Shown here in pieces: positions 7,359 through 15,818 of a DNA stretch of 28,572 bases (position 1 is its first letter; every line of letters starts with the position of its first letter). Source of the stretch: an uncultured Gammaproteobacteria bacterium (GTDB taxonomy: Bacteria; Patescibacteriota; Microgenomatia; UBA12405); NCBI GenBank assembly GCA_964434125.1, contig CAYSTF010000001.1, positions 1-28,572 on the forward strand, given 5' to 3'. Made by a program: the position numbers and the translations under genes. The notes under the pieces were generated by a model, which saw only the letters and a list, made by a program, of their open reading frames with translations, was not told the DNA's origin and searched no databases.

Positions 7359-7364
7359 ATTTCC

Positions 7365-7373
7365 ATATTACCA
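7365..7373 (-). promoter_or_regulatory. Extended -10 promoter of xer (probably leaderless)
   Basis: Minus strand reads TG-G-TAATAT-GGAAAT-ATG, so the -10 ends 6 nt before the start codon. Confidence 0.5.
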
Positions 7374-7586
7374 CTTAATACTTAGATAAATTAACTCAAA
7401 ATAGACGATACAATATTCGCAAATAATATTAAAATCATTTCTAGGGCATTTAGTGACGTCATATACATTTTATACCTATTTTATGGCATATTTATCATTT
7501 TTTATAAAAAATAACTTATCCGGCCAACTATTAAACCTTTGTCAGGGGAGACAGACTATCATAGGGGAGTCAAGGCCCAAAAAATA

Positions 7587-7609
7587 TGCCTAATAAAAAA
7601 TATTAGGCA
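7587..7609. repeat. Perfect inverted repeat / hairpin
   Basis: TGCCTAATA-AAAAA-TATTAGGCA (9-bp arms). Confidence 0.7.
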
Positions 7610-7926
7610 GTCAAGACAAAGAAGAGAAATATCGAAATTTATTTAATATTCAAAAAATATAAAAAACCAAAGACTTAATATAAAAGAGAAAATACAATAT
7701 TTATAAAAACATCCAAATGTCTCCCCCCCTCTGTTCAAAAAGTAACATACGTCGTAAAAGATACATTGTGCGACTCTATATTTTAACTTACCTACCACTA
7801 GGGAGATATCGTTATATTTTAATTTTCTATCAACCTAATTTAATCTCCATTAGAAATTGGTAATTAGAAATAATTAATTAAATCAACCCCTATCCTTCTC
7901 TTCCAGTCCTTCTCCCTGTGTACACT

Positions 7927-7972
7927 TTGATATAGTCTACGAAGCTAAACTTATCCACAGAGACTATATCAA
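7927..7972. promoter_or_regulatory. 12-bp inverted repeat enclosing a perfect DnaA box
   Basis: TTGATATAGTCT (7927-7938) and AGACTATATCAA (7961-7972) flank TTATCCACA (7951-7959). Confidence 0.55.
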
Positions 7973-7992
7973 TGTATATCATTATTTTGGAC

Positions 7993-8046
7993 CGTGAAAA
8001 TTATAGGATATATCGTGAAAACTATTATAGGATGTATATTATAGGA
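7993..8046. repeat. Short direct repeats: ATTATAGGA x3 and CGTGAAAA x2
   Basis: ATTATAGGA at 8000, 8024 and 8038; CGTGAAAA at 7993 and 8014. Confidence 0.8.
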
Positions 8047-8257
8047 CTCTCCCCTCCCTCACCAAGCCCTAAGTCTTTTTTTTTATACTTAAATCCAATT
8101 AATTTAGCTTCAAAATTAACTTTATTAGGTTTAATACTGTCAATTTATATATAAATACTTTAGGCTGTTTTGAAAGCACTACGCCAACTACCCCTCACTT
8201 CCCTATTTATTATAATTTTTATTACCTATTTACCTATTAAGGGAGAAACCTTACTAC

Positions 8258-15340: not shown

Positions 15341-15386
15341 AACTTATTTTATCATTATTTAACCAGCTAAAAAGTAATAATTAAGT

Positions 15387-15392
15387 TATAAT
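15387..15392 (+). promoter_or_regulatory. -10 element of the tRNA-Leu locus
   Basis: Perfect TATAAT 15 nt upstream of the tRNA 5'-fragment copy at 15408. Confidence 0.55.
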
Positions 15393-15407
15393 AAACTACT
15401 TTCCCGA

Positions 15408-15457
15408 GCCGAAGTGGCGGAACTGGCAGACCTGCCTGCCGGCAGGCAGGCGCGCAC
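15408..15457 (+). pseudogene. Duplicated 5' fragment (30 nt) of tRNA-Leu interrupted by a 20-bp palindrome
   Basis: GCCGAAGTGGCGGAACTGGCAGA (15408-15430) plus CGCGCAC (15451-15457) is identical to 15726-15755; insert at 15431-15450. Confidence 0.92.
15431..15450. repeat. Perfect 20-bp GC-rich palindrome CCTGCCTGCCGGCAGGCAGG
   Basis: Exact self-reverse-complement; absent from the intact tRNA copy. Confidence 0.95.
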
Positions 15458-15466
15458 AATATAAAC

Positions 15467-15721
15467 ATGTTTTATGTATACGTATTAAAAAGTCTGAAAA
15501 CCGGAACCTTCTATAAAGGACTAACAAACAATATAGAAAAAAGAATTAAACAACATGAACAAGGTCAATGTTTATCTACAAAAAACATCTTACCTATTAC
15601 ATTAATACATGTTGAGATATGCTCTTCTAGATTAGAGGCCAGAAAAATGGAAAAATACTTAAAATCTGGTTATGGTCGTGAGATAATAGAAGAACTCTTA
15701 GAAAGAAACTTAAAAATTTAA
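15467..15721 (+). CDS. Stand-alone GIY-YIG nuclease (84 aa)
   Basis: FYVYVL...FYKG motif pair, conserved Arg (KRIKQH) and catalytic Glu (ARKMEKYLKSG); catalytic domain only. Confidence 0.92.
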   Translation: MFYVYVLKSLKTGTFYKGLTNNIEKRIKQHEQGQCLSTKNILPITLIHVEICSSRLEARKMEKYLKSGYGREIIEELLERNLKI

Positions 15722-15725
15722 ATCA

Positions 15726-15809
15726 GCCGAAGTGGCGGAACTGGCAGACGCGCACGACTCAAAATCGTGTGGTAGCAATATCATGGGGGTTCGATTCCCT
15801 CCTTCGGCA
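15726..15809 (+). tRNA. tRNA-Leu (anticodon CAA); CCA not encoded
   Basis: Acceptor GCCGAAG/CTTCGGC, D-stem GCG/CGC, anticodon stem CACGA/TCGTG with loop CTCAAAA, long variable arm (TGGTA-GCAA-TATCA), T-arm GGGGG-TTCGATT-CCCTC, discriminator A. Confidence 0.96.
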
Positions 15810-15818
15810 CTTAAAATA

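Follow-up and report, generated by a model that had tools for sequence, protein, structure and literature searches.

An invariant 20-bp palindrome in truncated tRNA copies and its association with a small GIY-YIG nuclease

A perfect 20-bp palindrome (P) lies inside a dead partial copy of a tRNA gene, directly in front of a gene for a minimal GIY-YIG nuclease, in the 28,572-nt stretch of uncultured bacterial DNA analysed here (the window). The same sequence has inserted cleanly at many independent sites across phyla, and in some clades of the nuclease family nearly every gene is accompanied by it. We regard P as an independently mobile 20-bp element that is at the same time the cis-acting partner site of a GIY-YIG cassette, which duplicated nt 1-30 of tRNA-Leu(CAA); our confidence in this interpretation is moderate. 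A bolder proposal, which we can make only tentatively, is that P and the GIY-YIG gene form an unrecognised cross-phylum mobile element. In such an element, the bare Slx1-like domain would recognise the exact P, insert it where loops meet stems in structured DNA, and use it to lock its own cassette into tRNA genes; P would then be the smallest transposable unit known.

Table 1. Features of the P locus and their coordinates in the window.
Feature	Position	Strand	Remarks
Putative -10 box, TATAAT	15387..15392	+	About 15 nt 5' of the tRNA fragment; sequence inspection
Truncated 5' copy of tRNA-Leu(CAA), nt 1-23	15408..15430	+	Acceptor 5' strand, D-stem 5' strand, D-loop
P, CCTGCCTGCCGGCAGGCAGG	15431..15450	none	Inserted at the D-loop 3' end of the dead tRNA copy
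Rest of the truncated tRNA copy, nt 24-30, cgcgcac	15451..15457	+	tRNA homology stops here
Spacer of 9 nt, aatataaac	15458..15466	+	Separates the tRNA-derived segment from the start codon
Gene for the 84-aa GIY-YIG nuclease	15467..15721	+	Catalytic domain only, UPF0213/Slx1-like branch; Pfam PF01541, 4.3e-13
Intact tRNA-Leu(CAA)	15726..15810	+	ARAGORN; Rfam RF00005, 55.8 bits

P consists of two 10-nt inverted repeats without a spacer, and 18 of its 20 positions are G or C, compared with about 35% GC in the surrounding region. It matched the window only once, even with three mismatches allowed, and was absent from 100 dinucleotide-preserving shuffles; neither half-sites of P nor related GC hairpins were found elsewhere in the window. 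The site reads gccgaagtggcggaactggcaga, then CCTGCCTGCCGGCAGGCAGG, cgcgcac, aatataaac and the ATG. The intact tRNA-Leu(CAA) runs from gccgaagtggcggaactggcaga directly into cgcgcac and provides the empty-site reference. When P was taken out, its flanks matched 30/30 nt of this adjacent tRNA, so that P is a clean 20-nt insertion without target duplication. Nucleotides 1-30 of the tRNA are thus present twice, and the direct repeat itself (15407-15431 and 15725-15749) is 100% identical. Only 1 nt of the insertion point is ambiguous, C being both the first base of P and the next base of the tRNA. All this agrees with the original prediction, made from the sequence alone, of a perfect, GC-rich palindrome in AT-rich DNA, present once in the window, inserted precisely with at most 1 nt of ambiguity and placed 16 nt (15451-15466) before the nuclease start. 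A resemblance between the target, GGCAGA, and the end of P, GGCAGG, had also been pointed out. It exists at this site, but it is not a general rule; other insertion sites read GGTAGA^G, GGATA^G, GGTA^G, TAGC^T and GGCG^G (^, insertion point).

The TATAAT motif probably drives a single transcript comprising the fragment, P, the GIY-YIG gene and the tRNA, although this is an inference. A promoter consensus scan missed the motif because there is no match to a -35 box, but TATAAT lies at the same distance before the fragment in eight related loci. No terminator-like site was detected between 15250 and 15900, P lacks a T-run, and the only Rfam match at the locus was the tRNA, with no known RNA family covering P. 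P as an intrinsic terminator or a known RNA was therefore ruled out. The predicted fold of the leader was no more stable than that of shuffled sequences (z = -0.69).

P is widely dispersed. A scan of species-representative genomes (596 Gb) for the near-exact 20-mer, with the four end positions degenerate, yielded at least 120 stretches, and perfect P was present in at least about 105 stretches among the matches listed. These matches were examined as 8-kb stretches, not as whole genomes. Most of the P-carrying stretches among the matches listed had a GC content of 31-50%, and no conserved flanks surrounded the dispersed copies in this set. P occurs in at least eight phyla, which we list as Patescibacteria, Bacteroidota, Omnitrophota, Planctomycetota, Gammaproteobacteria, Desulfobacterota, Bdellovibrionota and Nitrospirota; cultured Bacteroidota with P include Winogradskyella, Flagellimonas, Longitalea and Flavivirga. 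A further 35 stretches came from viral contigs, one of which (29.5 kb) carries at least six copies of P and no GIY-YIG match. The original suggestion that near-identical palindromes are dispersed in CPR genomes was thus correct, and the distribution reaches well beyond the CPR. We found no paper in the literature that gives the sequence of P or describes a cassette of a GIY-YIG gene, a tRNA fragment and a palindrome.

Perfect palindromes can also originate from linkers or fold-back chimeras. However, it is virtually inconceivable that P arose by chance or as an artefact of sequencing, adapters or assembly. No match is expected in the window, and for a uniform composition an exact match to a 20-mer is expected on the order of once in 596 Gb, compared with the at least 105 observed, mostly in AT-rich DNA. 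Moreover, P is flanked by uninterrupted tRNA or coding sequence, independent NCBI, Logan and JGI assemblies have the site occupied with graded decay, and P is also found in isolate genomes.

The insertion sites of P are diverse. Fragments of tRNAs for Leu, Lys, Asn, Arg, Met, Thr and Val were hit, after nt 22/23, 11-15, 32, 34 or 39 and at the T-stem/T-loop junction; exact removal of 20 nt restored 30/30, 34/34, 46/46 and 51/51 matches to the tRNA, without any duplication. P also lies in frame in FtsK, GatB, ScpB, a sugar dehydratase and a PMT_2 glycosyltransferase, where it is always read as LPAGRQ. In FtsK it forms a seven-residue (seven-codon) insertion relative to ten close homologues, and in a further locus a conserved coding motif (..LVP^QDPND..) is split by the 20-nt insertion. 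In addition, P is found nested within further inverted repeats: 11.4% of the sites, but only 2.2% of control positions, are enclosed by a host stem of 7 bp or more. Two loci have P inside P, and in four P is embedded in tandem heptamer repeats. Target preference was weak among the matches listed, with A at -1 in 46/105 and at -3 in 46/105 sites and a depletion of A at +1 (8/105). That P is a local fold-back of its target can be rejected, because the same sequence sits in unrelated targets. P as an interrupter of otherwise whole tRNA genes was likewise ruled out: its deletion restored a whole tRNA in one real case out of 246 sites. The independent clean insertions into several tRNA types and positions, FtsK, nested copies and P itself support the idea of an ultra-short mobile palindrome, as originally predicted.

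To characterize the adjoining gene, the 84-aa open reading frame was compared with sequence and structure databases. It matched PF01541 with 49.8 bits (cut-off 22.6) over profile positions 1-73 of 78. Among 25 family members V4, Y5, Y16, G18, H30 and E62 were invariant and R26 was nearly so. By analogy, the conserved Y5, Y16, R26 and E62 would be the catalytic residues; nuclease activity itself is inferred. A profile search of PDB sequences retrieved 1zg2 (6e-13), 1ywl (3.8e-11) and SLX1 (7cq2, 3.5e-5). The AF2 model (pLDDT 94.8) has a beta-beta-alpha-beta-alpha-alpha fold (E2-9, E15-20, H23-31, E44-52, H55-66, H68-82), which contains the beta-beta-alpha-beta-alpha core of GIY-YIG enzymes, and its best Foldseek matches were 1zg2, Slx1 (7cq3; TMq 0.68, rmsd 2.5), I-TevI (1ln0) and UvrC (1yd5). 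Membership of the GIY-YIG superfamily is therefore established by domain match, conserved residues and core fold, and the nearest relatives in sequence and fold are UPF0213 proteins and the structure-specific endonuclease Slx1. Neither Pfam nor the AF2 model revealed a second domain or a DNA-binding domain. An exact database look-up of the protein gave no match, and public gene calls for the reading frame run on through P.

The association between P and this protein family was assessed in 80 metagenome loci (83 GIY-YIG ORFs, 284 kb) chosen solely because they encode a relative of the 84-aa protein. P was present in 35 of the 80 loci, and within 100 nt upstream of 27/83 ORFs, typically 11-36 nt before the ATG. 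All 31 exact copies lay within 300 nt of a GIY-YIG ORF; the remaining 215 kb contained not a single one (p = 8e-20). Its presence also followed the phylogeny of the protein: in clades 6, 7 and 8, 31/33 ORFs were accompanied by P, compared with 1/27 in clade 4 (p = 1.4e-13). The tRNA-associated clades 1, 2, 3, 9 and 10 carry other GC hairpins, not P. The dependence on clade is confounded with the type of target, as clade 4 does not reside in tRNA genes, and may also be confounded with host phylogeny. The link between P and the GIY-YIG genes is nevertheless strong. The original prediction would have been refuted by a palindrome that is unique, or distributed independently of GIY-YIG genes. Neither applies, given these counts and the copies in the genome and viral-contig stretches described above.

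In the reverse direction, a GIY-YIG gene was near P in only about 8 of some 155 P-selected stretches among the matches listed, and most P copies in this set are solitary, far from any GIY-YIG gene. All-against-all clustering of the ORFs within 2.5 kb of P in the 155 stretches disclosed no other partner enzyme, no family being present in more than four loci, and provided no positive evidence for action in trans. The association might be indirect. Unlinked machinery would move P into hairpin or tRNA-like loops, and P would gather beside GIY-YIG genes since only their cassettes create dispensable tRNA-like copies; cassettes with a hairpin interrupting the flanking direct repeat would also survive longer. 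We consider this possible, though unlikely. It would explain why about 95% of the P copies from the scan, among the matches listed, have no GIY-YIG gene nearby, why P is seen in non-functional tRNA copies only, and why cassettes without P have unrelated GC hairpins at the corresponding places, older fragments gathering several hairpins; besides, the P-less clade is also the one outside tRNA genes. However, no other protein family recurs near P in the 155 stretches, and the occupancy of a target of about 30 nt in 31/33 cases across three clades requires very strong targeting or functional coupling. The other hairpins of clades 1, 2, 3, 9 and 10 point to clade-specific pairing, and the exactness of P across cassettes whose proteins have diverged to 45-60% identity, together with its quick decay in resident copies, fits a site needed for the spread of the cassette.

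The anatomy of the cassettes bears on this interpretation. The upstream fragment is a near-perfect copy, 22-60 nt long, of the 5' part of the downstream tRNA, and P is found only in the truncated copy, never in the intact one. In four mirror-image cases, P lies in 3' partial tRNA copies. The nuclease gene is a cassette that invaded a tRNA gene and duplicated part of it, thereby making the fragment. A comparison with two related loci (L001 and L002) revealed recent horizontal exchange: fragment, P and spacer (15407-15466) are 60/60 identical to those of the window and the ORF is 95.3% identical, compared with 78.6% for the neighbouring lgt, 81.6% for a dksA-like gene and 84.0% for dnaB. Judged from these identities, fragment, P, spacer and nuclease gene travel from genome to genome as a single cassette. 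The gene meets, on the same comparative grounds, the criterion for a free-standing homing endonuclease, being located within or beside its presumed target and more similar than its flanks, with cleavage inferred. L001 and L002 also retain an older second fragment, indicating repeated invasion. In loci whose proteins are 88-90% identical to that of the window, P decays in situ, with one change in L003, four in L004 and about eight in L164. As resident copies decay, purifying selection that keeps P exact in place can be rejected.

P could also be merely a cis-regulatory or structural part of the cassette, such as a stabilising hairpin in the 5'-UTR, an autorepressor operator or a processing site, without being mobile itself. 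We give hardly any weight to this explanation. It fits the constant spacing of 11-36 nt before the start codon, the position of P as the dominant predicted hairpin of the nuclease leader, and the preservation of the stem by compensatory changes in L164; autorepression by an endonuclease at an operator is already known from I-TevI. It does not account for more than 100 solitary copies with unrelated flanks, including the in-frame copies in FtsK, GatB and ScpB and P in P, nor for the change in the position of P from one tRNA to another and its occurrence in 3' fragments located after the gene. P may still have a regulatory role in the cassette, but such a role cannot suffice as an explanation.

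How an independently mobile P and its cassette might work together can only be inferred; this applies to the GIY-YIG protein as the mobilising enzyme, the position of the cut, the copying and ligation of the 20-mer and the stabilising role of P. We propose that the nuclease, a bare catalytic domain of the Slx1/UPF0213 type, probably works in dimeric form, either on P with its two-fold symmetry or on the hairpin or cruciform of P. It would nick the loop-stem junctions of hairpin-forming DNA, both in tRNA genes (D, anticodon, variable and T loops) and in palindromes, including P. Such nicks would initiate the copying by which the cassette enters tRNA genes and would also open sites for the pasting of P. 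Once inside the duplicated tRNA segment, P would interrupt both the target and the direct repeat, so that the cassette could neither be re-cut nor be lost by recombination between the repeats. If spread were limited to cassettes with intact P, P would remain exact in spreading lineages and decay in resident ones. Solitary copies would be non-autonomous and moved in trans, related to the cassette in the way that MITEs depend on transposons, or REPINs on RAYTs. Several points speak against parts of this scheme. GIY-YIG enzymes are hydrolytic nucleases, and we know of no strand-transfer or ligation activity in the superfamily; therefore, copying and pasting of the 20-mer cannot be accounted for by a nuclease alone. 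The D-stem is weak, with only 3 bp, and would not obviously form a hairpin in DNA, and P is invariant although the associated GIY-YIG proteins are only 40-65% identical.

Alternatively, P might spread through RNA, as proposed for cyanobacterial small dispersed repeats, entering exposed loops of transcripts and becoming fixed by reverse transcription or RNA-templated repair, with the GIY-YIG protein a bystander or a mere maker of breaks. The insertion points do correspond to the four loops of the tRNA cloverleaf, and the fragment with P lies inside the predicted 5' leader of the nuclease mRNA. Moreover, although P has decayed in L164, its stem remains paired there: two base pairs show compensatory changes, and other positions are G-T combinations, for which pairing (as G-U) would be possible in RNA alone. 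Yet no reverse transcriptase recurs near P in the 155 stretches, and the insertions into coding frames and heptamer repeats are not obviously in structured RNAs. P also carries no strand information, since it is fully symmetric. We therefore lend little credence to an RNA route.

The original prediction likened P and its nuclease to REP/RAYT pairs. The analogy holds at the level of logic, but not for the class of enzyme. Like REPs and REPINs (PMC3116915), P is a short palindromic, hairpin-forming, dispersed and non-autonomous repeat tied to one adjoining nuclease-type gene, and in both cases the type of repeat follows the gene clade; the copy number of P within a genome is not established. In contrast, the gene beside P encodes a hydrolytic GIY-YIG nuclease and not an HUH/Y1 transposase resembling the TnpA of IS200/IS605; no TnpA-like family recurred near P when the ORFs of the 155 stretches were clustered. 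The P unit comprises 20 bp without an unpaired loop or flanking guide sequence, is identical across phyla, whereas REPs are species-specific, and is usually found on one side (5') of a gene that is itself a cassette lodged in a tRNA gene. In IS200/IS605-type single-strand transposition, a Y1 TnpA enzyme places the element 3' of a constant tetra- or pentanucleotide and causes no duplication; at the P sites no duplication was seen and the target preference was weak, and no TnpA was found among the ORFs of the 155 stretches. P differs from MITEs in lacking a target-site duplication at tRNA sites, in measuring 20 bp rather than about 50-500 bp, and in consisting entirely of two abutted 10-nt inverted repeats.

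P also has features in common with other very small repeats. The small dispersed repeats (SDRs) of Nostocaceae are reportedly 20-27 nt or so in length, form hairpins, insert cleanly, often lie in tandem heptamer repeats and nest within themselves. P shares the clean insertion of a tiny hairpin, the self-nesting and the heptamer-repeat embedding. However, SDRs are reported only from Nostocaceae and P occurs in at least eight non-cyanobacterial phyla, and SDRs have no known candidate enzyme, whereas P shows a statistical link with a GIY-YIG family as well as with fragments of tRNA genes. Rickettsia palindromic elements are said to be selfish palindromic DNA tolerated in frame inside housekeeping protein genes, as P is in FtsK, GatB, ScpB and others; they are about 100-150 bp long, confined to one genus and without a known linked enzyme. 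GC clusters of the GC42 type in yeast mitochondria are, like P, GC-rich palindromes in AT-rich DNA, and they multiply, fuse or nest within each other, and pass from species to species (PMC4478555). That paper also cites GC-rich palindromes adjoining Neurospora mitochondrial tRNA genes (Yin et al. 1981, as cited in PMC4478555). These clusters differ in being organellar, about 30-50 nt long and fast-diversifying, and some classes have putative target duplications. P, in comparison, is bacterial, 20 bp long and invariant, and causes no duplication at tRNA sites.

With respect to the enzyme, a close parallel is SegB of phage T4, a free-standing GIY-YIG homing endonuclease in a tRNA gene cluster that promotes the inheritance of itself and its flanks (PMC2330249). 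In both cases a GIY-YIG gene lies among or within tRNA genes, and the P cassette is far more similar between genomes than its flanks. Seg systems are not known to have a partial tRNA duplication or an accompanying palindrome. SegB and I-TevI carry an additional DNA-binding domain, in contrast to the protein in the window.

Very small mobile repeats such as the cyanobacterial SDRs, the mitochondrial GC clusters and the Rickettsia elements have been known for decades, but to our knowledge no enzyme or mechanism has been identified for any of them. P makes their movement directly testable in vitro and in E. coli: the invariant 20-bp sequence is a search handle valid across phyla, its statistically tight candidate partner has only 84 residues and is easy to express, and natural filled and empty sites exist in tRNA fragments and conserved proteins. 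P may be one of the smallest mobile DNA elements for which a partner enzyme can be identified. If the bolder proposal is true, P would be the first very small mobile repeat to have its enzyme identified, and its pairing with the nuclease the first equivalent of REP/RAYT based on a GIY-YIG protein. The pairing, if real, would represent a second, mechanistically different solution to the REP/RAYT theme. It would further flag systematic annotation errors, namely ORFs extended through P and seven-residue LPAGRQ inserts in housekeeping proteins, and would offer a compact sequence- or structure-specific nuclease as a possible tool. Finally, it would account for a recurrent lesion of tRNA genes, partial duplication plus a hairpin, in CPR and other genomes.

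The 20-bp element P (CCTGCCTGCCGGCAGGCAGG) in the tRNA fragment was found to be a perfect palindrome of 10 + 10 nt, as the original prediction had stated. It is the only match in the window even when up to three mismatches are tolerated, which bears out the claim of a single copy; none would be expected by chance, and neither half-sites of P nor related GC hairpins were found elsewhere in the window. P lies between gccgaagtggcggaactggcaga and cgcgcac. Since the intact tRNA-Leu(CAA) gene downstream joins both flanks, excising exactly 20 nt gives back 30/30 tRNA nucleotides. The target is not duplicated and only 1 nt (C) is ambiguous; the predicted clean insertion was confirmed, and the distance of 16 nt between P and the nuclease start was also correct: the 84-aa ORF located there matches the GIY-YIG catalytic domain.

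At this locus, read 5' to 3', a TATAAT box precedes tRNA nt 1-23, P and tRNA nt 24-30; a 9-nt spacer, the GIY-YIG ORF, 4 nt and the complete tRNA follow. The first 30 nt of the tRNA are directly repeated on either side of the ORF, with P in the truncated copy only, which makes the ORF a cassette lodged in a tRNA gene. Around it lie ordinary chromosomal genes (lgt, a dksA-type zinc finger gene, lspA, dnaB, and others). The nuclease gene created the adjoining tRNA fragment. In every case with a tRNA after the ORF, the fragment upstream reproduces the 5' part of that tRNA (Leu, Lys, Asn, Arg, Met or Thr) almost perfectly, over a duplicated stretch of 22-60 nt (e.g., 30/30, 34/34, 22/22, 23/23, 46/46, 51/51). 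P is most commonly found after linear tRNA nt 22/23 (3' end of the D-loop in our numbering), and otherwise after nt 11-15, 32, 34 or 39. In mirror-image cassettes the 3' partial copy is the one with P, which interrupts either its D-loop (L174) or the junction between T-stem and T-loop (L229, L233, L004). At least eight insertions of P beside GIY-YIG genes are independent, so the association does not go back to a single ancestral insertion. In public gene calls the nuclease ORF is 117 or 126 aa long rather than 84, because it is stretched upstream across the tRNA fragment and P; this is an annotation artefact of the open frame across P.

Coordinates of features in the window and in the compared stretches (L numbers)
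Feature	Stretch	Position
P	window	15431-15450
GIY-YIG ORF (+)	window	15467-15721
Intact tRNA-Leu(CAA)	window	15726-15810
Over-extended nuclease ORF call	window	15368-15721
Over-extended nuclease ORF call	L001	10001-10354
Over-extended nuclease ORF call	L003	3606-3986
P in otherwise complete tRNA-Met(CAT), viral contig	L153	2284-2303
P in otherwise complete tRNA-Met(CAT), viral contig	L130	8616-8635
Older extra tRNA-Leu 5' fragment	L002	2020-2150
Older extra tRNA-Leu 5' fragment	L001	9925-10039
Gene-poor region	window	7359-8257
Only ORF >=60 aa in this region	window	7972-8154
Heptamer array	L124	~1815
Heptamer array	L121	~3122
Heptamer array	L036	~1731
Heptamer array	L101	~346
Heptamer array	L179	2780-2960
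Heptamer array	L185	~2900
Imperfect hairpin related to P	L039	~445-500
Imperfect hairpin related to P	L221	~350-395
P-free clade-4 loci	L205, L222, L232, L236, L241, others	~3000 or ORF start

A scan for YYTRCCTGCCGGCAGGCAGG in one genome per species yielded at least 120 stretches. Among the matches listed, about 105 carry the perfect palindrome, most of them at 31-50% GC, and the hosts, going by record titles, include many CPR lineages, Bacteroidota (among them the cultured Winogradskyella, Flagellimonas, Longitalea and Flavivirga), Omnitrophota, Planctomycetota, Gammaproteobacteria, Desulfobacterota, Bdellovibrionota and Nitrospirota. By our own arithmetic, assuming uniform composition, exact P is expected by chance on the order of once in 596 Gb. 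It was also present in 35 viral-contig stretches. A comparison of the P flanks between stretches revealed nothing in common. P occupies sites typical of an inserting element: it lies in the loops of tRNA fragments, within other inverted repeats at their loop or centre (mostly abutting one host-stem strand), in tandem heptamer repeats, and in P itself (L028, L054). A host stem of 7 bp or more was found at 11.4% of P sites, compared with 2.2% of control positions from these loci. Six real genes contain P in one common reading frame, giving x-LPAGRQ-x (FtsK, GatB, ScpB, a sugar 4,6-dehydratase, a PMT_2 glycosyltransferase and one unassigned); in FtsK it forms a 7-residue insertion relative to ten homologues (71-84% identity), and in L072 exact removal of 20 nt rebuilds the conserved ..LVPQDPND.. 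motif. Only one real case gives a whole tRNA once P is deleted: a viral tRNA-Met(CAT) in which P follows nt 45 in the variable loop and might be tolerated as an extra arm. The target preference is weak: A stands at -1 in 44% of sites and equally often at -3, and is under-represented at +1. P is thus a real, cleanly inserting element that has spread over phyla.

Some further repeats were observed. Heptamer arrays (AATTACG, GTCAAAA, CACTTTC, TCTAAAA, CACGTTT, AGAAGTT) surround solitary P and also occur just upstream of the TATAAT box of cassettes. The putative viral contig IMGVR_UViG_3300037242_000417 (L149, L156, L157; 29.5 kb, ~60% GC) has at least six exact copies of P, three of them within a larger repeat (..P-gggcggcacaa..), and no GIY-YIG match was detected on its examined parts. 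A recurring imperfect hairpin, CCTGCCTGC-GGTA-GGCAGG, may be a sister element of P; one occurrence has exact P inserted, and the other stands in tandem with a degenerate P in a T-loop.

When the association is viewed from P, a GIY-YIG gene or remnant adjoins it in only about 8 of about 155 stretches among the matches listed (L049, L072, L096, L160, L122, L020, L051, L103), with P 19-37 nt upstream of the start codon. Within cassettes, P is confined to the truncated tRNA copy. The main rival explanation is an indirect association, in which P is moved by something else and accumulates in the only dispensable tRNA-like targets, survivorship favouring interrupted repeats; we consider it rather unlikely. 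Viewed from the protein, the association looks the opposite way round. For this view, 80 metagenome loci (284 kb) were chosen solely because they encode a relative of the window protein. P with up to three mismatches, mostly exact, was present in 35 of these loci and lay within 100 nt upstream of 27 of their 83 ORFs, typically 11-36 nt before the ATG. All 31 exact copies were located within 300 nt of the ORF, and none in the other 215 kb (p = 8e-20). In the tree of these relatives, 31/33 ORFs of clades 6, 7 and 8 have P versus 1/27 in clade 4 (Fisher p = 1.4e-13). The sites of clade 4 are non-tRNA, pointing to a different target class in this sister clade, and the small tRNA-associated clades 1, 2, 3, 9 and 10 mostly have other GC hairpins (YCCGCC-nnn-GGCGGR, TCCCGAT..ATCGGGA). 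P is linked in cis to a GIY-YIG cassette that invades tRNA genes, and the link is specific to certain clades. Clade-4 ORFs lie within genes whose products are four-helix-bundle proteins of the '23S rRNA intervening sequence' type, or come right after the conserved motifs CACCCCGTTAGATA or ACACTTGGCCTGTGAAATA.

Syntenic contigs, labelled Candidatus Shapirobacteria, contain the same cassette in the same place, and their P sites show graded decay. The site is exact in the window, L001 and L002, and reads CCTACCTGCC... in L003, TTTACCTGCC... in L004/L005 and TTCACCCGCCGTCAGGTGGG in L164, where two compensatory pair changes (T-A to C-G, G-C to A-T) keep the stem. As the nuclease proteins of loci with decayed P are still 88-90% identical to the window protein, resident P is not kept constant by selection; once resident, it decays. 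L004/L005 have a second P, this one exact, which occupies the T-loop of a downstream 3' tRNA fragment. The older tRNA-Leu fragment upstream of the present one in L001/L002 is homologous to the fragment of L004/L164 and contains two other hairpins, tcccgataatcggga and cacccgcc...ggtgggcg, the latter at the P position; it is the mark of an earlier cassette whose ORF has since been lost. These extra fragments indicate that the same tRNA gene was invaded repeatedly. Between the window and L001, the flanking genes are 78.6% (lgt), 81.6% (dksA-like gene) and 84.0% (dnaB) identical, whereas fragment, P and spacer match at 60/60 nt and the ORF at 95.3%, indicating that the cassette, including P, was recently exchanged between diverged genomes. 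The cassette therefore moves between genomes together with P. The gene-poor region of the window (~900 nt, 29% GC) gave no Rfam match, and the equivalent gap is likewise gene-free in L001 and L004.

P is exact across cassettes whose proteins share only 45-65% identity, and yet it decays in place, which implies base-specific recognition by a factor travelling with P. As with transposon ends, this combination is what a site that an element needs in order to spread should show. We infer that the factor is the GIY-YIG protein. The window protein consists of one GIY-YIG domain. Throughout the family, Y5, Y16, H30 and E62 never vary and R26 hardly does, and a family-specific motif, KSGxGRE, lies at the C-terminus. 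Among proteins of solved structure, the UPF0213 members BH0048 and EF2693 are closest to it, together with the nuclease domain of Slx1, a structure-specific endonuclease; the confident predicted model (pLDDT 94.8) fits these structures first, followed by I-TevI and UvrC. Unlike classical GIY-YIG homing endonucleases, it lacks a DNA-binding domain. Inferentially, the protein would cut loop-stem junctions, P in the duplicated segment would shield the cassette from re-cutting and repeat-mediated deletion, and solitary copies of P would have been moved in trans. A hydrolytic nuclease alone would not account for copying and pasting a 20-mer, for which host repair/ligation or an RNA route would be needed; we regard an RNA-mediated route for P as improbable. 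Of these readings we favour the one in which the GIY-YIG protein is the direct partner of P, at roughly even odds.

In its tiny size, its nesting and its heptamer repeats, P behaves like the small dispersed repeats of cyanobacteria, for which the pairing of heptamer arrays with tiny hairpin elements has also been described. These repeats have been reported only from Nostocaceae, and no enzyme is known for them. Rickettsia palindromic elements are a further analogue, and so are mitochondrial GC clusters (PMC4478555). REP/REPIN-RAYT pairs (PMC3116915) follow the same logic as P and the GIY-YIG gene, but their defining HUH transposase is absent here. A homing endonuclease of the GIY-YIG type is also known from a tRNA gene cluster, T4 SegB (PMC2330249). 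Full-text literature searches found neither the P sequence nor a description of a GIY-YIG/tRNA-fragment/palindrome cassette. We rate P as belonging with very small mobile palindromes and nuclease-associated repeats, both of which are known kinds; the finding supplies a candidate enzyme and simple tests.
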